Below are positions 6,892 through 53,602 of a stretch of 64,000 nt of DNA, one piece after another. Made by a program: the position numbers and the translations under genes. The stretch is taken from NCBI RefSeq assembly GCF_054482595.1, contig NZ_CM137008.1; one strand, written 5' to 3'. The notes under the pieces are model-generated. The model had not been told where the DNA came from and did not search any database. It saw only the letters and a list, made by a program, of their open reading frames with translations. Positions within the stretch are counted from its first letter, which is position 1. Each line of letters starts with the position of its first letter.

Positions 6892-7947
6892 ATGTTTAAT
6901 CATATATTTACCCAGGTCAAACGTTCAGAAAATAAAAAAATGGCGGAAATCGCCCAATTCCTGCATGAAAATGATTTGAGCGTTGACACCACTGTCGAAG
7001 TATTTATTACCGTAACCCGCGATGAAAAGCTTATCGCGTGCGGCGGAATTGCCGGAAATATTATTAAATGCGTTGCTATCAGTGAATCCGTTCGCGGTGA
7101 AGGACTGGCGCTGACATTAGCCACCGAACTGATAAACCTCGCCTATGAGCGGCACAGCACGCATCTGTTTATTTATACCAAAACCGAATACGAGGCGCTG
7201 TTCCGCCAGTGCGGTTTTTCCACGCTGACCAGCGTCCCCGGCGTGATGGTGCTGATGGAAAACAGCGCCACGCGACTGAAACGCTATGCCGAATCGCTGA
7301 AAAAATTTCGTCATCCAGGGAACAAGATTGGCTGCATTGTGATGAACGCCAATCCCTTTACGAATGGTCACCGTTATCTGATTCAACAGGCTGCGGCACA
7401 GTGCGACTGGTTGCATCTGTTTTTAGTCAAAGAAGATTCTTCACGCTTCCCCTATGAAGACCGGCTGGATCTGGTGTTAAAAGGCACCGCCGATATTCCA
7501 CGCCTGACCGTGCATCGCGGCTCCGAATACATCATCTCCCGCGCTACGTTCCCTTGCTACTTCATTAAAGAACAGAGCGTCATTAACCATTGTTACACCG
7601 AAATTGATCTGAAGATTTTCCGTCAGTACCTCGCTCCCGCGCTGGGTGTAACTCACCGCTTTGTCGGTACTGAACCCTTTTGTCGCGTTACCGCCCAGTA
7701 CAACCAGGATATGCGCTACTGGCTGGAAACGCCGACTATCTCCGCACCGCCCATCGAACTGGTTGAAATTGAGCGGCTGTGTTACCAGGAGATGCCGATA
7801 TCCGCTTCCCGGGTACGCCAACTGCTGGCGAAAAACGATCTCACGGCTATCGCGCCGCTGGTCCCTGCAGTCACGCTGCATTATTTGCAGAACCTGCTTG
7901 AGCACTCCCGCCAGGACGCGGCAGCTCGTCAAAAGACCCCCGCATGA
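6892..7947 (+). CDS. citC: [citrate (pro-3S)-lyase] ligase
   Basis: Sequence recognised as CitC (MFNHIFTQVKRSENKKMAEIAQFL..., NANPFTNGHRYL motif); the track ORF starting at 6784 is an in-frame extension overlapping the MFS gene. Confidence 0.9.
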   Translation: MFNHIFTQVKRSENKKMAEIAQFLHENDLSVDTTVEVFITVTRDEKLIACGGIAGNIIKCVAISESVRGEGLALTLATELINLAYERHSTHLFIYTKTEYEALFRQCGFSTLTSVPGVMVLMENSATRLKRYAESLKKFRHPGNKIGCIVMNANPFTNGHRYLIQQAAAQCDWLHLFLVKEDSSRFPYEDRLDLVLKGTADIPRLTVHRGSEYIISRATFPCYFIKEQSVINHCYTEIDLKIFRQYLAPALGVTHRFVGTEPFCRVTAQYNQDMRYWLETPTISAPPIELVEIERLCYQEMPISASRVRQLLAKNDLTAIAPLVPAVTLHYLQNLLEHSRQDAAARQKTPA

Positions 7948-7961
7948 GAAACAGGTGAAAA

Positions 7962-8258
7962 ATGAAAATAAACCAGCCCGCCGTTGCAGGCACCCTTGAG
8001 TCTGGGGATGTGATGATACGCATCGCCCCACTCGATACGCAGGATATCGACCTGCAAATCAACAGCAGCGTTGAGAAACAGTTTGGCGATGCCATTCGCA
8101 CCACCATTCTGGACGTTCTCGCCCGCTACAACGTGCGCGGCGTACAGCTGAATGTCGATGACAAAGGCGCACTGGACTGCATTTTACGTGCACGACTGGA
8201 AGCCCTGCTGGCACGCGCCAGCGGTATCCCGGCTCTGCCATGGGAGGATTGCCAATGA
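7962..8258 (+). CDS. citD: citrate lyase acyl carrier protein (gamma subunit)
   Basis: 98 aa, [24 protein letters not shown]...; operon position. Confidence 0.9.
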
Positions 8259-9163
8259 TTTCCGCTTCGCTGCAACAACGTAAAACTCGCACCCGCCGCA
8301 GTATGTTGTTTGTACCTGGTGCTAATGCCGCGATGGTCAGCAACTCCTTCATCTACCCGGCTGATGCCCTGATGTTTGACCTCGAAGACTCCGTTGCATT
8401 GCGTGAAAAAGACACCGCCCGCCGCATGGTTTACCACGCGCTGCAACATCCGCTTTATCGCGATATTGAAACCATTGTGCGTGTAAACGCGCTGGATTCC
8501 GAATGGGGTGTTAACGACCTGGAAGCCGTCGTTCGCGGTGGTGCGGACGTTGTGCGTCTGCCGAAAACCGATACCGCTCAGGATGTTCTGGATATCGAAA
8601 AAGAGATCCTGCGTATCGAAAAAGCCTGTGGTCGTGAACCCGGCAGTACCGGCCTGCTGGCGGCGATTGAATCTCCGCTGGGCATTACCCGCGCGGTAGA
8701 AATCGCTCACGCTTCCGAGCGTTTGATCGGTATCGCCCTCGGTGCAGAAGACTATGTGCGCAACCTGCGTACAGAACGCTCCCCGGAAGGAACTGAACTG
8801 CTGTTCGCTCGCTGCTCCATTTTGCAGGCCGCGCGTTCTGCGGGTATTCAGGCGTTCGATACCGTCTATTCCGACGCTAACAACGAAGCCGGATTCCTGC
8901 AAGAAGCCGCCCACATCAAACAGCTGGGCTTTGACGGCAAATCGCTGATCAACCCGCGTCAGATTGATCTGCTGCACAACCTCTACGCACCGACCCAGAA
9001 AGAAGTGGATCACGCCCGCCGCGTCGTAGAAGCCGCTGAAGCCGCCGCTCGCGAAGGCCTCGGCGTGGTTTCCCTGAACGGCAAGATGGTGGACGGTCCG
9101 GTTATCGATCGCGCCCGTCTGGTGCTCTCCCGCGCAGAACTTTCCGGCATCCGCGAAGAATAA
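8255..9163 (+). CDS. citE: citrate lyase beta subunit (citryl-ACP lyase)
   Basis: Starts at the [10 protein letters not shown] methionine, overlapping the citD stop (ATGA); HpcH/HpaI aldolase-type sequence. Confidence 0.9.
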
Positions 9164-9173
9164 GGCAATCAAA

Positions 9174-10706
9174 ATGACGCAGAAAATTGAACAATCTCAA
9201 CGACAAGAACGGGTAGCGGCCTGGAATCGTCGCGCTGAATGCGATCTTGCCGCTTTCCAGAACTCGCCAAAGCAAACCTACCAGGCTGAAAAAGCGCGCG
9301 ATCGCAAACTGTGCGCCAACCTGGAAGAAGCGATTCGTCGCTCTGGTTTACAGGACGGCATGACGGCTTCCTTCCATCACGCTTTCCGTGGCGGTGACCT
9401 GATCGTCAATATGGTGATGGACGTCATCGCGAAGATGGGCTTTAAAAACCTGACTCTGGCCTCCAGCTCCCTGAGTGATTGCCATGCGCCGCTGGTAGAA
9501 CACATTCGCCAGGGCGTGGTTACCCGCATTTATACCTCTGGCCTGCGCGGTCCACTGGCGGAAGAAATCTCCCGTGGTCTGCTGGCGGAACCGGTGCAAA
9601 TCCACTCTCACGGCGGACGTGTGCATCTGGTACAGAGCGGCGAACTGAATATCGATGTGGCTTTCCTCGGCGTCCCGTCCTGTGATGAATTCGGTAATGC
9701 CAACGGCTACTCCGGTAAAGCCTGCTGCGGCTCCCTCGGCTATGCAATGGTTGATGCCGACAACGCAAAACAGGTCGTGATGCTTACCGAAGAACTGCTG
9801 CCTTATCCGCATAATCCGGCAAGCATTGAGCAAGATCAGGTTGATCTGATCGTCAAAGTTGATCGCGTTGGCGATGCTGCAAAAATCGGCGCTGGTGCTA
9901 CCCGTATGACCACTAACCCGCGCGAACTGCTTATTGCCCGTAGCGCTGCGGATGTGATTGTTAACTCTGGCTACTTCAAAGAAGGTTTCTCTATGCAGAC
10001 CGGCACCGGCGGCGCTTCGCTGGCGGTAACCCGTTTCCTGGAAGACAAAATGCGTAGCCGCGATATTCGCGCCGACTTCGCCCTCGGCGGTATTACCGCA
10101 ACGATGGTTGATCTGCACGAAAAAGGTCTGATCCGCAAACTGCTGGATGTGCAGAGCTTTGACAGCCATGCTGCGCAATCGCTGGCCCGTAACCCCAATC
10201 ACATCGAAATCAGCGCCAACCAGTACGCTAACTGGGGGTCGAAAGGCGCATCGGTTGATCGTCTCGACGTGGTGGTACTGAGTGCGCTGGAAATTGACAC
10301 CCAGTTCAACGTTAACGTGCTGACCGGCTCTGACGGCGTACTGCGTGGTGCTTCCGGTGGTCACTGCGATACCGCAATTGCCTCTGCGCTTTCCATCATC
10401 GTCGCGCCGCTGGTACGCGGTCGTATTCCGACGCTGGTGGATAACGTGCTGACCTGCATCACCCCGGGCTCCAGTGTCGATATTCTGGTCACAGACCACG
10501 GCATCGCTGTTAACCCGGCACGTCCGGAGCTGGCAGAACGTCTGCAGGAAGCGGGGATCAAAGTGGTTTCTATTGAGTGGCTGCGTGAACGTGCGCGTCT
10601 GCTGACCGGTGAACCACAGCCGATTGAATTCACCGACCGCGTCGTTGCCGTTGTGCGTTACCGCGATGGCTCGGTGATCGATGTTGTGCATCAGGTGAAG
10701 GAATAA
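9174..10706 (+). CDS. citF: citrate lyase alpha subunit (citrate CoA-transferase)
   Basis: 510 aa, recognised as CitF. Confidence 0.95.
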   Translation: MTQKIEQSQRQERVAAWNRRAECDLAAFQNSPKQTYQAEKARDRKLCANLEEAIRRSGLQDGMTASFHHAFRGGDLIVNMVMDVIAKMGFKNLTLASSSLSDCHAPLVEHIRQGVVTRIYTSGLRGPLAEEISRGLLAEPVQIHSHGGRVHLVQSGELNIDVAFLGVPSCDEFGNANGYSGKACCGSLGYAMVDADNAKQVVMLTEELLPYPHNPASIEQDQVDLIVKVDRVGDAAKIGAGATRMTTNPRELLIARSAADVIVNSGYFKEGFSMQTGTGGASLAVTRFLEDKMRSRDIRADFALGGITATMVDLHEKGLIRKLLDVQSFDSHAAQSLARNPNHIEISANQYANWGSKGASVDRLDVVVLSALEIDTQFNVNVLTGSDGVLRGASGGHCDTAIASALSIIVAPLVRGRIPTLVDNVLTCITPGSSVDILVTDHGIAVNPARPELAERLQEAGIKVVSIEWLRERARLLTGEPQPIEFTDRVVAVVRYRDGSVIDVVHQVKE

Positions 10707-10709
10707 GTC

Positions 10710-12123
<1,414 letters not shown>

Positions 12124-12148
12124 ATCATTAATATATCCGGAGTTAACT

Positions 12149-24109: not shown

Positions 24110-24440
24110 CAAGCGCCACCCGGCAAAACCGGCAGCAGGGGCTTATTCCCCCTGCTTTTCCAGCGCATACTTATACAACGCATTCTTCTTCACTCCGTGG
24201 ATTTCTGCCGCCAACGCCGCCGCTTGCTTCAACGGCAGCTCAGCCTACAACAGCGCCAGCGTACGCAGCGCATTGGCGGGCAGTTCGTCATCCTGGGCTT
24301 TATGGCCTTCAATAATCAGCACCATCTCGCCTTTGCGAGGGTTTTTATCTTCTTTGATCCACGCCAGCAGTTCGCCGACCGACGTGCCGTGGATGGTTCC
24401 CAGGCGGGTGTTCATCACATAACGGTATAGGGCATCATTC
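24110..24440 (-). pseudogene. rsmI: 3' fragment of a 16S rRNA 2'-O-methyltransferase gene with an internal stop
   Basis: Minus-strand translation gives [83 protein letters not shown], matching the RsmI C-terminus with an in-frame TAG; the 5' part is replaced by IS66 sequence. Confidence 0.7.
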
Positions 24441-42032: not shown

Positions 42033-43037
42033 TTATTGATTAGCGGCGATAATAAGAACAATACCCACAATGTATGAAATAAACATAGTCAGCAGCAGTT
42101 TATTGGTTCCGGCTGGCGCACTGGCAAATTCTCTCCAGATGAAGACTCCCCAGATCACGGCAATCATTGTGGCACCCTGTCCCAGACCGTAGGAAATGGC
42201 ATAACCCGCCTGACCAGACGCAATCAAACTGAATGCCAGACCGACACACCAAATCATACCGCCCAGCCAGCCGCAAACATGATCCCGTAAACTCCCGGAA
42301 AAATACATTTTCCTGTAGACCGGTTCTCCTGAAATAGGCTTTTTCATGACCAGCGTGTTAAGGACAAAGTTCGACAAAAACAGCCCCACTGCAAACAGAA
42401 CAAGTGCTGAGTACGGCGTCATCAGACCGCTGGCAGGCTGGCTGAAATTGTCAGACATGGAGTCCGCCAGGAAGCGGAAAAACCATCCCATGATGATACC
42501 CGCAAGAATGGCAGTGATGAGGCCTTTGTTACGGCGAGATTTATCCGCCTCCTGCGTGACACGGCCATAGGCTATCGCGGTAAAAATAATGGCGATCACA
42601 ACGCAGGCGACACCGAGGAACAGAATGAGCGGATCGCCCTGCGGATTGCCGATATAGGTGGTGATCACACCCAGAGCCAGTGCCAGCCCCACCCCCACAG
42701 GAAAAGCTACCGCCATACCGGCAAGATTAATAGAAGCCACCAGAAGAATATTGGAAATATTGAAGATAATCCCTGCCAGTATTGCCGACATCAGACTACT
42801 GCTGCTCGCCTGCTGAATATCAGGTATAAAGCTGCGACCGGCTTCGCCCATAGAACCCAGAGTGAAGGCAAATAACAAAGAACACAGCAATAATCCAATT
42901 GAATAATCCCAATAGAATAGAGGGAACTCCCATTTTTTATTACTGACAAGTTTAGTTGTATTCGCCCATGAACCCCAGCAAATCATGGTAATAAAACACA
43001 TTATTATGGCGACAGCATACGATTCCACGATAAACAT
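42033..43037 (-). CDS. DMT-superfamily sugar transporter (glucose/ribose porter-like)
   Basis: 334 aa, about 10 TM segments, resembles GlcU/RbsU-type sugar uptake proteins; family call tentative. Confidence 0.55.
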   Translation of the reverse strand: MFIVESYAVAIIMCFITMICWGSWANTTKLVSNKKWEFPLFYWDYSIGLLLCSLLFAFTLGSMGEAGRSFIPDIQQASSSSLMSAILAGIIFNISNILLVASINLAGMAVAFPVGVGLALALGVITTYIGNPQGDPLILFLGVACVVIAIIFTAIAYGRVTQEADKSRRNKGLITAILAGIIMGWFFRFLADSMSDNFSQPASGLMTPYSALVLFAVGLFLSNFVLNTLVMKKPISGEPVYRKMYFSGSLRDHVCGWLGGMIWCVGLAFSLIASGQAGYAISYGLGQGATMIAVIWGVFIWREFASAPAGTNKLLLTMFISYIVGIVLIIAANQ

Positions 43038-43140
43038 AAATAACTCCTTGTGGTAGTTACAATCAATCGTTGTGGACAGAGGGCATAACAGCCATTCCTC
43101 GAATGGCTGTTATATGTTATTAATTAAAATAAAGCTGTAA

Positions 43141-43782
43141 TTACGCTTTCAAACCATACGTTTTGAATTTTTCAAGAACGATGGTCATTTCGGCTTCAGA
43201 CAGAACGGGAACATCGTGATGTAATCCGCCACATTTGATGTATAAATCAGCCAGCGTCTCAGTTTCACCCGCCAGCCACAACGTCTTTTCCAGCGTGACG
43301 TCCATGGCCAGCATACCGTGGTGCTGCATCAGTAAGGACTTACTTTCTCTGATTCCTTGAGATACACTGTCGGCCAGTTCAGGGCTGCCAAAGGTATAAT
43401 AGGGAATACAGGGAATATGATCCGTCCCCGATACCGCCACCATATAATGAATAGCCGGAATTGAATGATTATGTATTGCCACCGCCGTGGAATTCACCGC
43501 ATGCGTATGTATGACAGCATTCAATTCTGGTCTGGCTTTATAACACGCCAGATGAAATAGCCATTCACTTGATGGTATTTTACCCGCTTCAGGTATTCCC
43601 TTATCGTCTACAAAGACAATCATGTCCGGCGTCATCTTTGAATAAGCGATCCCACTCGGTGTAATCAACATGCCACCGGTATATCTGGCACTCACATTAC
43701 CTGATGTTCCTTGATTCAGACCTGACGCATTCATTTCCCGACAAATGGAAATGATATTTTCTGCTAACTTAATCCTTTCCAT
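43141..43782 (-). CDS. class II aldolase/adducin family protein (MtnB / L-fuculose-phosphate aldolase-like)
   Basis: 213 aa with conserved His-rich metal site (HTHAVNSTAVA, LMQHHGMLAMD). Confidence 0.8.
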   Translation of the reverse strand: MERIKLAENIISICREMNASGLNQGTSGNVSARYTGGMLITPSGIAYSKMTPDMIVFVDDKGIPEAGKIPSSEWLFHLACYKARPELNAVIHTHAVNSTAVAIHNHSIPAIHYMVAVSGTDHIPCIPYYTFGSPELADSVSQGIRESKSLLMQHHGMLAMDVTLEKTLWLAGETETLADLYIKCGGLHHDVPVLSEAEMTIVLEKFKTYGLKA

Positions 43783-43812
43783 TACTGCTCCTTAACAGAA
43801 GTGATCGTCGTT

Positions 43813-44928
43813 TTAATGCAGCTCGTCCTGGAGTGCTTTACTCTTCAGGTCAGCAAACATATCCGCCAGAGCTGACTTACTGGCAGCACAGACTCCCCGT
43901 TCAGTAATGAGGCCGGTAATGTATCGGGCAGGCGTGACGTCGAAAGCGTAGTTCCCACAACGGGTTCCTTCAGGGGCGGTATTGACCCAGCTCAATTCTC
44001 CCTGAGTATTTATCCCATAGACATGGGACTGCTCTTTTCCGTCACGTTGCTCAATCGGAATGGTTTTTCCGTCCTCGATAGTCCAGTCAATAGTGGGAGA
44101 AGGTAACGCGACGTAGAAGGGAACATGGTTATCATGGGCCGCCAGCGCCTTAAGATAGGTACCAATTTTATTACAGACATCCCCTCTGGCCGTGGTTCGA
44201 TCGGTCCCCACTATACAGAGATCAACGTCACCGTGTTGCATCAGGTGGCCACCCGCATTGTCGGCAATCAGGGTGTGAGGAATACCGTGTGAACCCAGTT
44301 CAAATGCCGTGAGTCCACCCTGATTACGTGGCCGCGTTTCATCCACCCAGACGTGAACAGGGATTCCGTTTTCATGCGCTTTATAGATGGGAGAAAGCGC
44401 GGTTCCCCAGTCTACAGTCGCCAGCCAGCCTGCGTTACAATGTGTCAGGATATTGACCACACTCCCGGCCGATTTTTTCTGGGCTATTTCGCGGATGACT
44501 TCTGCACCATGTAATCCAATTTGTTCACACAACGCGACATCTTCCTCGGCAATTTCTGCCGCCAGCGCCCAGGCCACATCCTTGCGCTCTGATACACAGA
44601 GATCCTTCAGTGTGGCTATCATCCTGTCGAGAGCCCATTTGAGGTTAATTGCAGTTGGTCGGGTTTTGATAAGAAGGTCATAGTAACGCTGCAGACCTAC
44701 GTCACTGGCATTGTGGTTCATTCCCAGTGCGATACCATATGCCGCAACGACACCAATAAGCGGGGCGCCACGAACCCACATCTCCTGAATAGCCGCAGCG
44801 GCCATTTCCGCAGAGGTAAGCGCCACCACTTCAAACTTAAAAGGCAGCTTAGTCTGATCGATGATCTCTACCGCTTTTCCATCCCCGGAAACCCAGACCG
44901 TTCGGTAGTGTTTACCTTTAATATTCAT
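43813..44928 (-). CDS. S-methyl-5-thioribose-1-phosphate isomerase family (MtnA/eIF-2B-like)
   Basis: 371 aa; MtnA-like sequence pattern throughout. Confidence 0.85.
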
Positions 44929-44937
44929 AATGACCTC

Positions 44938-46197
44938 TTACTTAACCTTCGCAGACTGGATGACGGAGTCCATATTTTTAAACTGGCGGGCATTGACAAT
45001 AAGATCGCGCGCCATGGTCAATGCACGTCGTTCACATTCTGCGCGAAGCTCTGTATTTTCAATCTGTTTCAGCTCGGCAACGCCAGCAAAACCAATGATC
45101 CGGCGATTCATTTCCATGCCGGCATTCACCAGGGAATCTTCAAGCAGCGTGGCAAAAAACTGATCCTGTGCGTCCTCAAGAGCGGCCCTGTTCTGTTGAT
45201 ACATTTCTGTCGGCCACGCGTCACCCTGTGTTTTGTTGTCCCAGAGCTGGCGGAACTCCCGGGTGAAAACTGACCAGGTGTGGACAATCTGCTGAAGTAG
45301 CCATTCCTGATAGTCAGCGCGACGTTGCTCATTTGCATCCCACCCAGGGCGTGAGAAGAACGCCAGCAGGAGGTTGCCAATATAGTTGCCGATATCAAAC
45401 GCCATTGGTCCCATGAAACCGAACTCCGGATCAATCACTTTGGTATCCGTGTCGGTCACCATGATTGAGCCTGAATGAAGGTCACCATGTAACAATGCCT
45501 GCGCTTCTGTCATAAATTTGTACTTATAACGCATGGCAACCTGGAGCATCTCTACATCAGCCCAGGCCTTATGGACGGCATCGTCCAGCTCAGGAGAAGT
45601 CCAGTTATTCCGTTCCGCGTTGTAATAGGGCTCTGTGAAGATCAGATCTTCCGTAATTTTGCACAGCTCATGATTTAACGCGAACTCAGCAGTAAGCGCT
45701 TTTTTCTGTTCTGCTGACATGCCAATGTCAGACGTATTAAAGAGAGTCTGTGCTAAAAATCTGCCGATATCTTCAGCTAGCTTAGGGAATTTTTTACCGT
45801 TAATCAGTCCCTTACGCAGAATTACGTGAGGCGTCAAATACTCCATGGCAAACAGTGCCATTTCCGGGTCATAAAAATAGACCTGGGGAATCAGTGTGTG
45901 ACCCGCGTACTTGGCTTCCTGACATAAGACGTTGTACTCAAAGCCCGCACGGCTCAGAGATAAAGGCCATCCTTCGCCCCCTGCACGAAGCCAGGGCAGA
46001 GCTTGTTTTACAATGATGGTTTTATGTGTCCCCTTAACGATAAACACCATGTTCAGGTTTCCGTCCCCCACTTCTGAAACTTTCCACTCTTCTGGTAACC
46101 CTCCCGGTTCGCATGAAGGGGTCAGTCTGGACGAGAGATAACCAGGCAGCGTGTCACATGTCAGCGGCTTGTAACCTGATGGAATTGAATCCGTCAT
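44938..46197 (-). CDS. S-methyl-5-thioribose kinase family (MtnK-like)
   Basis: 419 aa; aminoglycoside-phosphotransferase-like kinase with MtnK-type motifs (HGDLHSGSIMV, DPEFGFMGP). Confidence 0.85.
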   Translation of the reverse strand: MTDSIPSGYKPLTCDTLPGYLSSRLTPSCEPGGLPEEWKVSEVGDGNLNMVFIVKGTHKTIIVKQALPWLRAGGEGWPLSLSRAGFEYNVLCQEAKYAGHTLIPQVYFYDPEMALFAMEYLTPHVILRKGLINGKKFPKLAEDIGRFLAQTLFNTSDIGMSAEQKKALTAEFALNHELCKITEDLIFTEPYYNAERNNWTSPELDDAVHKAWADVEMLQVAMRYKYKFMTEAQALLHGDLHSGSIMVTDTDTKVIDPEFGFMGPMAFDIGNYIGNLLLAFFSRPGWDANEQRRADYQEWLLQQIVHTWSVFTREFRQLWDNKTQGDAWPTEMYQQNRAALEDAQDQFFATLLEDSLVNAGMEMNRRIIGFAGVAELKQIENTELRAECERRALTMARDLIVNARQFKNMDSVIQSAKVK

Positions 46198-46711
46198 AAC
46201 AGTTCTCCTTGTCTACACAGAATGATAACTGACTTATCATATGGCAACTATACTTTATCATGTGTAAAGTAATTTGTGATGCATGTAGATTTTTTGAACT
46301 GGAGAAAATTAAAAATAATGTTGTATGGAGTCATGATCTTTACAGGAATTAGTAGGGTGCATTCCTGTTATTTATATAAAATTCATTGTATTACATAAAA
46401 ATGACGGTGCTGCGCGGGGAATTGTCTCGGGCAATCTTAGACGAAAGGAAGTATTGAAGTGACAGAATAATCTACATTTTTTATACATGTGTATTTTTCT
46501 GTTGTCTTTTGTTTTTAGCGTATGGTGTTTTTATGCCGATGTCTAATAGACAGATAGATTCGAGGGCCAACAGCCCCATTATCATGATGGAGCAACAGAG
46601 GTGAGTCTAACGTTTCCGTACTTCTTATCGATCGGCACTAACAATCCTTTGTGATAACGGTATTCCCACACAGAGAAACCCACGTACCTGAATAAAAAAA
46701 AGATTACTGGT

Positions 46712-47130
46712 GTGGAAATGGGATTAACAGATTATGCCATCAAATCGGATGGTAATGAGGTCAATAATCCTCGTCATCTCATTAACGTCAACTGTAATCT
46801 GCGACGCAAATTAGCCAGCATGATGAATAACAAACACAATCTGGCAAGAGCGTTAGGTGATGCTGATTGGCACGGCTTTATCAACAAACTGGAGTACAAG
46901 GCAGCCGAAAAAGGCGTTCATCTGGTAAAAATCGACCAGTAGTTTGTCTGTTCGAAAAGCTGCTATTGTTGTGGTTACAAAATGTCGCTTCAAAAACGGA
47001 TCTGGCGATGCCCTGAATGCGGTGTTGAACATGACCGGGATATAAATGCGGCAATCAACATAAAACTTAAAGACATACAGGAATTAAAGGCGGCGGGCCC
47101 CGTCGTCTCTGTCTATGGAGGAGCTGCGTA
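46712..47130 (+). pseudogene. IS200/IS605-family TnpB (OrfB) C-terminal fragments
   Basis: ORF 46712..46942 then a frame encoding MSLQKRIWRCPECGVEHDRDINAAINIK (TnpB zinc-finger end); no N-terminal part. Confidence 0.6.
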
Positions 47131-47395
47131 AACCCGTCGTACAGACGGTTGCAGCCTGAAAAGTGGGAAGGCCTTGCCCGATTGGGCGGGGAGTAGTCAC
47201 CCTTGGAGTCATTTTTATCCGGTGTATTAATATGCTCCTAATAGTTAATCTGGTTATAATATTTTTTTTTTGATTATGATCACGAAAATATCTCGGTTTT
47301 TATTTGCAAAACTTGAAACGTGAATCCAAAAAAGATAAATATTTGTCCGCAGTGACTTCTTTTCTGTTGAAAAGTTCAATCTAAAGGGCAAAAAA

Positions 47396-48508
47396 ATGAA
47401 AAAAATTACAGTGGCACTTTCTGTGGTTGCGGCATCTGTTCTGATGGCAATGTCTGCACAAGCGGCAGAAATCTATAACAAAGACGGTAACAAACTGGAT
47501 CTGTACGGCAAAGTTAATGCAGAGCATTACTTCTCTTCTTCAGCTAGTGATGACGGGGATAAAACTTATGCTCGTATGGGTTTCAAAGGTGAAACTCAGA
47601 TTAATGACCAGTTAACCGGTTTTGGTCAGTGGGAGTACGAATTTAAAGGTAACCGTACTGAAACTGAAGGTTCTGATAAAGATAAAACTCGTCTTGCGTT
47701 TGCAGGGCTTCGCTTTGGCGATTATGGTTCGCTCGACTATGGTCGCAACTACGGTGTAGCTTATGATGTTGGCGCTTGGACTGACGTGCTGCCGGAGTTT
47801 GGTGGAGATACCTGGACTCAGACTGATGTATTTATGACCCAGCGTGCTACTGGCGTAGCGACCTATCGTAACAATGATTTCTTCGGCTTGGTTGATGGTC
47901 TGAACTTTGCTTTGCAGTATCAAGGTAAAAATGATAGTGCTGCAAAAGTGAATAACTGGAAAGGCCGTGACGAAGTTGAATCTAATGGTGATGGCTTTGG
48001 TCTGTCAGCTACTTACGATTATGAGGGATTTGGCGTTGCTGCAACCTATGCAAAATCTGACCGTACTGATGGGCAGGTATCCTATGCTAAAGACAGCCCT
48101 CTGAATGCCTCTGGTAAAACTGCTGAAGTATGGGCTACGGGCCTGAAATATGATGCAAACAACATTTACCTGGCTGCAACTTATTCTGAAACTCAGAATA
48201 TGACAGTCTTCGGTGATGACCATATCGCAAACAAAGCGAAAAACTTTGAAGCTGTTGCTCAATACCAGTTTGATTTCGGCTTGCGTCCGTCCATCGCTTA
48301 CCTACACTCTCGCGGTGAAAATATTGGTGCGTTCGGTAACCAGGATCTAGTTGAATACATCGACGTAGGTGCGACTTATTACTTCAACAAAAATATGTCC
48401 GCTTTCGTTGACTACAAGATCAACCTGATTGATGAAAGTGAATTTACCAAAGCATCTGAGGTTGCAACCGACAACATCGTTGCTGTTGGTATGACCTACC
48501 AATTCTAA
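47396..48508 (+). CDS. outer-membrane general porin (OmpC/OmpF/PhoE family)
   Basis: 370 aa; signal peptide [39 protein letters not shown] start and C-terminal ...VGMTYQF. Confidence 0.9.
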
Positions 48509-48664
48509 TTTTGGTAGGTAAGAATATGCGGGAAGGGAGTGATGTCACTGCCCGCATATAGGTGGCACCCTCATGCCACCTTTGAAGAGGCAATTTTATT
48601 GCCTCTTCTCAATTTAACTTCATGTTATTTATTACCCTTTTATTGATTTGAAACTCTATTGTTG

Positions 48665-48690
48665 GGGCGCTTTGTTGCGCCCATTTTTTT
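48665..48690 (+). terminator. rho-independent terminator-like hairpin downstream of the porin gene
   Basis: gggcgc-tttgtt-gcgccc followed by a T7 run; further hairpins at about 48530-48590. Coordinates approximate. Confidence 0.5.
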
Positions 48691-48761
48691 ACACCAATTA
48701 GGTAAAGTTATTTTTAAGTAATCGAGCAACTTGATCCTACCCACGTAATGTGGACACGGCC

Positions 48762-49616
48762 CTAAGCGAGATTATGGTTTTCAAATTGTTCCGGGCTGAG
48801 ACCGCCACAGGCACTGTGACGACGCCAGCGATTGTAATCACACTCGATATAATTAAACACCGTTGCCCGCATTATTTCCCGGCTGCTAAAGCGTTCCCCG
48901 TGGATACATTCCACCTTCAGCGAATGAAAGAAGCTTTCCACACAGGCATTGTCATAACAGTAGCCTTTCGCACTCATACTGCCACGCAGGTTGTGTCGCT
49001 TCAGCAGCGCCTGATAATCCCCTGAACAGTATTGACCACCACGGTCCGTATGAACAATGACGCTTTCCGGGCGTCTTCTCCGCCACAACGCCATTTGCAG
49101 TGCATCACAGGCCAGTTGTGCTGTCATTCGCGGTGACATCGACCAGCCAATGACGGCGCGTGACCACAGGTCGATGACTACTGCGAGATACAACCAGCCC
49201 TCATCGGTACGCAAGTACGTGATGTCACCCGCCCACTTCTGGTTCGGGCCACTGGCGCTGAAGTCCTGCTCCAGCAGATTCTCCAATACGGGCAGACCAT
49301 GTGCACGGTAGCTGACCGGGCTGAACTTCCGGCTGGCTTTCGCCCGCAGCCCCTGACGACGCAGGCTGGCGGCAATGGTTTTAATATTGAACTCCGGCAG
49401 TTCGTCAGCAAGGCGGGGATCACCGTATCGCTGCTTTGCCTCAAAGAATGCCTTATGGACAGCGGCATCGCAGGTGAGCCGAAACTGTTGGCGCAGGCTC
49501 ATCTGGTGACGACGCCTGAGCCAGACATACCAGCCGCTGCGGGCAACCCGAAGTACACGACACATCGCTTTGATGCTGAACTCTGCCCGATGATTTTCGA
49601 TGAAGACATACTTCAT
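48762..49616 (-). CDS. IS3 family transposase OrfB (DDE integrase domain)
   Basis: 284 aa with DDE region ([10 protein letters not shown]...HTDRGGQY...[11 protein letters not shown]). Confidence 0.9.
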
Positions 49617-49912
49617 TTCAGGCGCTTCGCGAAGTATGTCGCGGCCTTTTGGAGGATGGCCAGTTCCTCAGCCTGCTCCGCCAGTTGTCGTTTAAGGCGG
49701 ACATTTTCAGCGGCCAGTTCGCTTTCGCGCTCTGACGAACTCATTTGTTGCTGCTGTTTACTGCGCCAGGCATAAAGCTGAGATTCATACAGGCTGAGTT
49801 CACGGGCTGCGGCGGCCACACCGATGCGTTCAGCGAGTTTCAGGGCTTCGTTACGAAATTCAGGCGTATGTTGTTTACGGGGTTTCTTGCTGATTGATAC
49901 TGGTTTTGTCAT
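49613..49912 (-). CDS. IS3 family transposase OrfA
   Basis: 99 aa [47 protein letters not shown]... Confidence 0.9.
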
Positions 49913-50244
49913 GAGTCACCTCTGGTTGAGAGTTTACTCACTTAGTCCTGTGTCCACTATTGGTGGGTAAGATCACGGCGGGGTTAGGTGCGTGCGCTGA
50001 ACAAAATGACGAAGGTAGGAATGCCAGAAAGCGTGCGTATTGCCTGACGGTAGCAACCAGCTGAAGGGATGCTTATCCCCAAACCTGATTTATTCAACAA
50101 AGCCGCTATAGCCTTACCAGAACAATCACCACCTCCCCTGGAGGTGGTCAAGAATACAGCTCTGGCGAGCCGCATACCTTTAATTACCTGCTCTGATTAG
50201 ATAAATCAGATGCAGGTACATAAGTATGCCAGCATTATATGCAA

Positions 50245-53196: not shown

Positions 53197-53602
53197 ACAT
53201 TTACCTGAACGATTAACTGCAACGGCTATCCTTACCGACAATCAACGTCAATAAAAATCTGTACTGACTCGTCAGCACTGGGTTCGATCAGTAGGAACAT
53301 GAATTCAAAGGCCTCCTTGCTGAATCTCAAGACTCCTCCGATTCCAAAGATAAACCCCGTCTTAAGTTCGCTGGCCTGAAATTCGGTGACTATTGTCTAT
53401 ATCGGGATCACCACGGTTGTGTGATTAATCATCGTCGATCATAAAGCGTCTATGGATGTACTGCGGCGTTCCTGCTACTGGTGATCACCCTGTGGTTGTG
53501 CAATTCCAAACGGATGAAGCGAGAGTAACAGACATCACGCCGCAATCGGGGGCGGCGTGTAGACGTGGTTAATTACTATCAAATATATTAATCAGGCCGA
53601 TT

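Follow-up and report, generated by a model that had tools for sequence, protein, structure and literature searches.

A probable mobile cassette that carries a porin gene of the P7 nmpC type and an ipeX-like 3' untranslated region in the tRNA-leuX island of Escherichia coli O157:H16 Santai

The window analyzed here is a stretch of 64,000 nucleotides (NCBI RefSeq assembly GCF_054482595.1, contig NZ_CM137008.1) that corresponds to the chromosome of Escherichia coli O157:H16 Santai, with 100% identity across the 1571 bases tested and agreement between the listed open reading frames (ORFs) and the genes annotated there. Where the tRNA-leuX island ends, beside genes of a dihydroxyacetone phosphate (DHAP) shunt, it carries a module that probably represents a cassette for a porin of the phage NmpC/Lc type, self-contained and able to move horizontally. 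The module consists of a porin gene (47396-48508, plus strand, stop codon included), an upstream regulatory region of 185 bp (47211-47395), and a structured 3' untranslated region (3'UTR) of 182 nt (48509-48690, plus strand), which runs from the porin stop codon to an intrinsic terminator and is homologous, by sequence and predicted fold, to the regulatory element ipeX. It is a putative porin-swap cassette of an already known kind, and what differs is its rare chromosomal setting, bounded by insertion sequences (ISs).

The porin ORF is uninterrupted and is predicted to encode an intact 16-stranded general-diffusion porin of 370 amino acids. The Pfam Porin_1 model (PF00267) matched residues 29 to 370 at its full length (model positions 1 to 337 of 337; E = 6.6e-148), and the solved porins OmpK37, OmpC, and OmpK36 matched residues 24 to 370, the whole mature part, with E values of about 1e-135. 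The translation contains a Sec signal peptide (coding part 47396-47464, plus strand, read from the translation), the loop-3 motif PEFGGD, and a C-terminal YQF, and these columns were invariant in an alignment of 22 sequences. An AlphaFold model made from the 22-sequence alignment was mediocre, with a mean predicted local distance difference test score (pLDDT) of 64 and an unresolved loop 3; it was not used for fold searches, and the fold assignment rests on sequence homology. The ratio of nonsynonymous to synonymous substitution rates (dN/dS) was 0.06 to 0.12 in comparisons with P7, island, E. fergusonii, and lambdoid relatives, a range that indicates purifying selection and a lineage that is, or until recently was, functional. 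The fraction of optimal codons (Fop) was 0.71, compared with 0.80 to 0.89 for major porins, 0.54 to 0.66 for quiescent porins, and 0.38 to 0.52 for the neighboring island genes.

The amino acid identities obtained by alignment with the K-12 porins were 61% for OmpC, 59% for OmpF, 63% for PhoE, and 61% for OmpN. Identity was 97.6% to the NmpC precursor of phage P7, 95 to 97% to Escherichia plasmid copies, 88% to a chromosomal porin of E. fergusonii, about 81% (80.8%) to DLP12 NmpC and Lc, and about 79% (78.7%) to Salmonella OmpD. The neighbor-joining tree placed the island porin inside the NmpC/Lc/OmpD clade, adjoining P7 NmpC and outside the OmpC/OmpN and PhoE branches. By these comparisons, the island porin is a member of the NmpC/Lc/OmpD lineage and specifically of the phage P7 nmpC type.

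Alternatively, the gene might be the ordinary ompC in the form of a divergent allele or a duplicate copy, or it might encode a phosphate-starvation porin of the PhoE type, and database labels lend this some support: RefSeq names the island gene ompC, one plasmid record labels its homologue PhoE, and the NCBIfam porin OmpC model was passed with 532 bits against a cutoff of 484. However, that model describes a subfamily and takes in NmpC and OmpD as well, and the equivalog cutoffs for PhoE (494.7 versus 599) and OmpF (453.7 versus 583) were both failed. In addition, an intact 375-amino-acid ompC is present on the same chromosome at its own apbE(ftp)-ompC-rcsD locus, and an intact ompF is present at the aspC-ompF-asnS locus. 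The island porin is 62.5% identical to the former and 60.6% identical to the latter, and with both genes intact at their normal loci it is thus an additional paralogue and not an ortholog. The tree, the identities of 61 to 63% to OmpC and PhoE versus about 98% to P7 NmpC, and the separate intact ompC refute the ompC/PhoE assignment, which we regard as extremely improbable. The sequence-only reading that preceded this work had located and described the locus accurately: it had proposed a complete gene of the OmpC/OmpF/PhoE family, additional to the ordinary ompC and ompF and lying between an IS605 tnpB remnant and an IS3 copy, all of which was borne out, and it had left the paralogue unnamed, which the comparison with OmpC, OmpF, PhoE, NmpC, OmpN, and OmpD now names as the P7 NmpC type. 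The RefSeq label "porin OmpC", which is carried by the island gene and by more than 100 plasmid copies, hides both the P7 NmpC type and the status of an extra porin.

The relationship to P7 extends over the whole module. From 47211 to 48732 (1.52 kb, comprising promoter, gene, 3'UTR, and 42 bp past the terminator), the nucleotide identity to P7 was 95.3%. The final 42 bp (48691-48732, plus strand) are identical to the P7 cargo segment and are not common to other island modules, and the segment of P7 identity stops exactly at the end of the adjacent IS, ISEc16. In P7 and P1-like phage-plasmids, the module always lies between odaA/hxr and ssb (more than 100 plasmids), a site that is occupied by IS1 in P1, and P7 nmpC itself is a known annotated gene (GenBank AF503408; PMC6906374). 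PLSDB contained 113 plasmid records with the module, mostly from Escherichia with a few from Klebsiella and Salmonella. The chromosomal version (at least 99% identity) was present in 12 of 5426 complete E. coli genomes, and a P7-type plasmid copy was found in about 100 of the same genomes. Nine chromosomal copies were 100% identical, so that selection inside the chromosomal lineage is not measurable. More distant modules, which are 79% identical and encode porins of 365 amino acids, occupy IS-rich islands of other E. coli chromosomes, beside IS66 and IS3 debris or beside cdiA and fec, and lambdoid prophages have additional relatives that are flanked by Q and the holin gene. E. fergusonii carries two tandem porin genes at the locus (drpB ... 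hchA) where K-12 has the yedS pseudogene; the second of these, the 88% identical porin mentioned above, has an ipeX-like 3'UTR, and the lineage may have come from this chromosomal locus.

Both boundaries of the chromosomal module are formed by mobile-element sequence. On the left lies an InsQ/TnpB pseudogene remnant of the IS200/IS605 family (46641-47159, plus strand; RefSeq annotation of the identical Santai locus), which has a frameshift, an internal stop, and no N terminus but still shows a zinc-ribbon-like stretch and a fragment of an ORF (46712-46942). On the right lies ISEc16 of the IS3 family (48733-49975, minus strand), with orfA at 49613-49912 and orfB at 48762-49616 (RefSeq coding sequence 48762-49912); its ends at 48733 and 49975 were read from the sequence, as the inverted-repeat finder gave neither. 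ISEc16 is flanked by CTT on one side (48730-48735) and CGG on the other (49973-49978) and thus lacks a 3-bp target duplication, which indicates that its flanks were joined by rearrangement and not by simple insertion. No P1 backbone DNA was found beside the chromosomal copy when it was sought there. P1 homology starts at the ssb stop codon, 7 to 10 bp past the shared segment, and therefore the donor of the chromosomal copy cannot be named. Together with the missing target duplication of ISEc16, this starting point suggests that an IS-mediated rearrangement delimits the chromosomal module, and IS activity, rather than phage integration, would have placed or trimmed the cassette at the leuX island.

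The 3'UTR contains, all on the plus strand, the hairpins H1 (48524-48559), H2 (48561-48580), and H3 (48584-48608), a conserved, A/U-rich, single-stranded core, AACTTCATGTTATTTATTACCCTTTT (48616-48641), and a canonical intrinsic terminator with hairpin H4 (48665-48682) and a T run to 48690. With K-12 (DLP12) ipeX as the query, nhmmer gave a single match in the window, at 48527-48641 (E = 3.1e-7). The H1-H4 architecture recurs in the 3' regions that follow the lambdoid porin genes, nmpC of DLP12, and the porin gene of E. fergusonii, and the minimum free energy (MFE) z scores were -6 to -9. RNAalifold predicted 23 pairs, of which 8 showed compensatory changes, as in GGTGGCA/TGCCACC versus GGTAGCA/TGCTACC versus AGTGACT/AGTCACT, and H3 occurred with three unrelated stem sequences and folded in every member. 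The unpaired core, and not only the stems, forms the most conserved block. Its pattern TGTTAT(A/T)TATTACC had a single occurrence in the window, where chance would give 0.02, and, among 26 loci compared, was present only downstream of NmpC-clade porins; in that set it was absent from ompC, ompF, phoE, ompN, yedS, and Salmonella ompD. The 17-mer GTTATWTATTACCNTTT was found at at least 120 loci in 298 Gb of contigs, a pattern too short to inform on taxonomic spread, and among the matches listed only an E. albertii locus was a real ipeX-like element by nhmmer profile. The P7 counterpart (AF503408.1, 25347-25530) bears no annotated feature in the P7, JL22, and phi456 records. On this evidence of homology and covariation, the 3'UTR is an ipeX homologue. 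PMC12197685, PMC5069750, and PMC3333887 describe IpeX as an RNA that is made within the transcript of a phage porin gene and that represses both OmpC and OmpF.

In comparison with the 79% identical island modules, the 3'UTR is more conserved than the coding sequence (88 to 97% identity, with 90% for the modules beside IS66 and IS3 debris or beside cdiA and fec, and a coding-sequence dS of about 1.8, at which synonymous sites are saturated), and this counts in favor of the ipeX reading. Against that reading, the high conservation could in part reflect recombination rather than selection, and identity to K-12 ipeX over the whole 3'UTR is no more than about 50%. The sole Rfam hit, to GcvB (28.4 bits, gathering threshold 42), was rejected as a chance architectural match, as the element has no G/U-rich R1; the K-12 ipeX region gave no Rfam match either, and Rfam appears to have no IpeX family.

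The sequence-only reading had seen the hairpins as downstream terminators. This was right for H4, and it was too narrow for the element as a whole, which is homologous to the regulatory 3'UTR ipeX. A reading of the hairpins as stacked terminators, or as stabilizers of the porin mRNA resembling repetitive extragenic palindromic (REP) elements, with no regulation of other genes, would fit the textbook terminator at the end, the frequent protection of mRNAs by multiple 3' hairpins, and the absence of an Rfam family above threshold. It accounts poorly for a most conserved block that includes the unpaired core, for the homology to the experimentally defined DLP12 ipeX region, and for the simple terminator that alone follows the chromosomal relative, Salmonella ompD; nor would it predict that the core is a specific antisense match, far past background, to the initiation regions of ompF and ompC, as described below. 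We therefore consider a terminator-only role to be quite unlikely.

The core is antisense to the Shine-Dalgarno and start-codon regions of both ompF and ompC. In the initiation region of ompF, AACTTCATGTTATTTATTACCCTTTT is predicted to form 13 contiguous pairs with GGGTAATAAATAA and 6 more with ATGAAG, and the duplex energies were -26 to -30 kcal/mol for Santai or K-12 ompF and -20 to -23 kcal/mol for the Shine-Dalgarno/AUG region of ompC. The best other of 130 putative initiation regions, taken from 214 kb of the same genome, reached -15.5 kcal/mol, and at most 5 of 500 shuffles reached the observed ompF and ompC energies. No pairing signal was obtained for the core with phoE, ompN, or the cassette's own leader. 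These energies were calculated by RNAduplex with the single-stranded core; when the complete 3'UTR was run against leaders of 125 nt, the pairings spanned whole molecules and had no meaning. The corresponding core of the DLP12 type (K-12 ipeX) had a different best predicted partner, namely, the K-12 ompC leader (-32 to -6), at -26.4 kcal/mol (0 of 300 shuffles), in a duplex of 15 bp (including one G-U pair) plus 9 bp that covers the Shine-Dalgarno sequence. Thus, the lambdoid core is predicted to favor the ompC leader and the P7/island core the ompF initiation region.

We tentatively propose, at a little under even chances, that the P7/island 3'UTR is a distinct IpeX variant that pairs directly with the ribosome-binding sites of ompF and ompC. 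Two points argue for caution. The duplex energies ignore the accessibility of both target and small RNA (sRNA), and the action of ipeX on ompC is described, in the review PMC12197685, as not relying only on complementarity. The strong complementarity predicted between K-12 ipeX and ompC sits uneasily with that description. If the proposed pairing holds, the two IpeX lineages would each be tuned to another host porin, with ompC as the target of the lambdoid type and ompF as that of the P7 type, and the published view that IpeX acts on ompC without simple complementarity would be revised; the predicted duplexes between the tail and the start regions of ompF and ompC would provide a simple way in which this sRNA, described as having an unclear mode of action, could work.

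Upstream of the gene, the region 47211-47395 (plus strand) is AT rich (27.6% G+C), which agrees with the earlier proposal that the gene has its own AT-rich promoter region. Its identity to P7 was 67 to 70% over 47211-47298 and 87 to 95% thereafter. Promoter features were taken from an alignment of seven homologous upstream regions. The candidate -35 element TTGAAA (47313-47318, plus strand) lies inside CTTGAAA, which was invariant in all seven, and the candidate -10 element TAAATA (47336-47341, plus strand), which also comes from the sequence and from a TAAATA-like box conserved in the alignment, follows 17 bp past it; with this spacing, the invariant CTTGAAA is most simply explained as a -35 element. 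The leader contains the sequence GCAGTGAC (47349-47356, plus strand), again invariant in all seven homologues. The hexamer TGAAAC, which had been read as reminiscent of an OmpR-type site, is indeed present (47314-47319); it does not speak for OmpR control, because the hexamer is common (51 occurrences in the window versus 41 expected, and hence uninformative by itself) and falls within the -35-like CTTGAAA. A check for tandem OmpR boxes of the F1-F3/C1-C3 type, made with no OmpR position matrix, gave this single TGAAAC overlapping the likely -35 element, and the OmpR-site candidate has one common hexamer in its favor and nothing else.

Farther upstream, P7, the other islands, and E. fergusonii share a perfect palindrome, TGTGA-N6-TCACA, which would fit a class-I CRP site at about -72. 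At the same position, the island copy has the degraded CRP-type site TTTGA-N6-TCACG (47269-47284, plus strand), the center of which lies about 72 bp upstream from the putative start of transcription, and the sequence upstream of it is 53 to 70% similar to that of other family members. With a degraded site and divergent upstream sequence, activation may be weakened in the island copy. At the start of the coding sequence, CAGTGGC in codons 5 to 7 (47409-47415, plus strand) matches 7 nt of the RybB 5' seed with an energy of -13.9 kcal/mol, which 8 of 500 shuffles also attained, a weak signal. According to PMC3333887, nmpC has been reported as a RybB target, and cAMP-CRP control has been reported for ompD (Santiviago 2003, cited there).

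Taken together, these features would allow transcription from a sigma-70 promoter (TTGAAA-17-TAAATA), aided by the class-I CRP site of the family, which is weakened in the island copy. The pre-protein would leave the cytoplasm through Sec, undergo cleavage after AQA, and be inserted as a trimer by the β-barrel assembly machinery (BAM). The mRNA tail or a processed sRNA would pair with the ribosome-binding sites of ompF and ompC, and their translation would be lowered. With the cassette on, the major porins of the cell would be replaced by the phage-type porin, and this swap would alter the phage and colicin receptor profile and the permeability to solutes or antibiotics, as described for Lc/ipeX of phage PA-2. 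The comparisons above establish which porin this is, that it is an extra copy, that the module is mobile, and that its tail is homologous to ipeX; from the sequence features we infer that the gene is expressed in Santai and depends on CRP and that the cassette represses OmpC and OmpF.

Two promoter findings count against an active cassette: the CRP-type site has two core mismatches, and a consensus promoter scan found no plus-strand promoter. The cassette may thus be poorly expressed or silent, and it could be a quiescent relic with an intact ORF that is transcriptionally silent in its chromosomal context, through the degraded activator site and probable H-NS coating of AT-rich foreign DNA, and that normally contributes nothing to the envelope. 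The decay of the half-site from TGTGA to TTTGA, the diverged sequence upstream of it, and the low G+C content of the promoter region are in line with such a relic, as are the position of the gene amid IS debris in an island with many pseudogenes (RefSeq annotation) and the identity of the nine chromosomal copies, among which selection cannot be measured. Moreover, the relatives nmpC and ompN are described in PMC3333887 as quiescent in laboratory strains. However, the ORF, the Shine-Dalgarno sequence, the candidate -35 and -10 elements, and the entire 3'UTR are intact, one good CRP half-site is left, codon bias is high, and the low dN/dS indicates that the lineage was functional until recently. 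We judge a silent relic to be unlikely, if credible, and continue to favor a mobile cassette that is capable of expression.

Several other features of the same island were recorded. Directly to the left of the porin module, 42033-46197 (minus strand) encodes a GRP-family sugar transporter, a class II aldolase annotated as L-fuculose-phosphate aldolase, mtnA, and mtnK; beside these genes, the porin is a rare addition. Between IS elements inside the island lies the full citrate lyase cluster citCDEFXG with an aconitase gene of the acnB type after it (7096-14950, plus strand), and genes for a GntR regulator, an amidohydrolase, and a major facilitator superfamily (MFS) transporter are located upstream of it. 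RefSeq annotates a 629-amino-acid "enterotoxin" gene (22391-24280, plus strand) right after a malX / MalY-PatB pair, as well as pseudogene fragments of a phosphoethanolamine transferase and psiE (56619-57839 and approximately 53395-53528). These fragments have the porin region on one side and, on the other, a tyrosine integrase gene (58148-59413), which is followed by a CP4-type cbtA/cbeA toxin-antitoxin block.

If the cassette is expressed with its IpeX-like tail, OmpC and OmpF would be replaced, the sensitivity to phages and colicins that depend on them would change, and the permeability to beta-lactams might be altered, which is of relevance because P1-like phage-plasmids are spread widely in livestock and clinical E. 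coli. If the tail also acts by the direct pairing proposed above, the gene and its tail would represent a portable porin-swap cassette that has traveled between lambdoid prophages, P1-like phage-plasmids, IS-rich chromosomal islands, and the E. fergusonii yedS locus.

Compared with known porins, the island gene shares the Pfam family and the fold of E. coli OmpC, OmpF, PhoE, and OmpN but differs from them in identity (59 to 63%), tree branch, and locus, and a micF/OmpR-site architecture is not recognizable in its promoter. Salmonella OmpD is a general porin of the same clade, with 79% amino acid identity and reported cAMP-CRP activation and RybB targeting; unlike the island porin, it is encoded by a core chromosomal gene (yddG-ompD), and its 3' flank has a simple terminator without an ipeX-like element. 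NmpC of the DLP12/qsr' prophage and Lc of phage PA-2 belong to the same clade, at 81% identity, and share the layout of a gene followed by a structured 3'UTR with homologous H1-H4 and core. Their 3'UTRs are about 50% identical to that of the island overall and 20 nt shorter, and, in contrast to the island copy, these lambdoid genes lie between the Q antiterminator gene and the holin gene. The closest known system is P7 NmpC (AF503408, AAQ07495.1), which has the same signal peptide and a length of 371 rather than 370 amino acids and differs from the island porin at 10 amino acids, mostly near residues 193, 214-215, and 232-235. In P7, the module is carried on a phage-plasmid at odaA/hxr-ssb with an intact CRP-type site, whereas the island copy is chromosomal, lies between a TnpB remnant and ISEc16, and has a degraded one.

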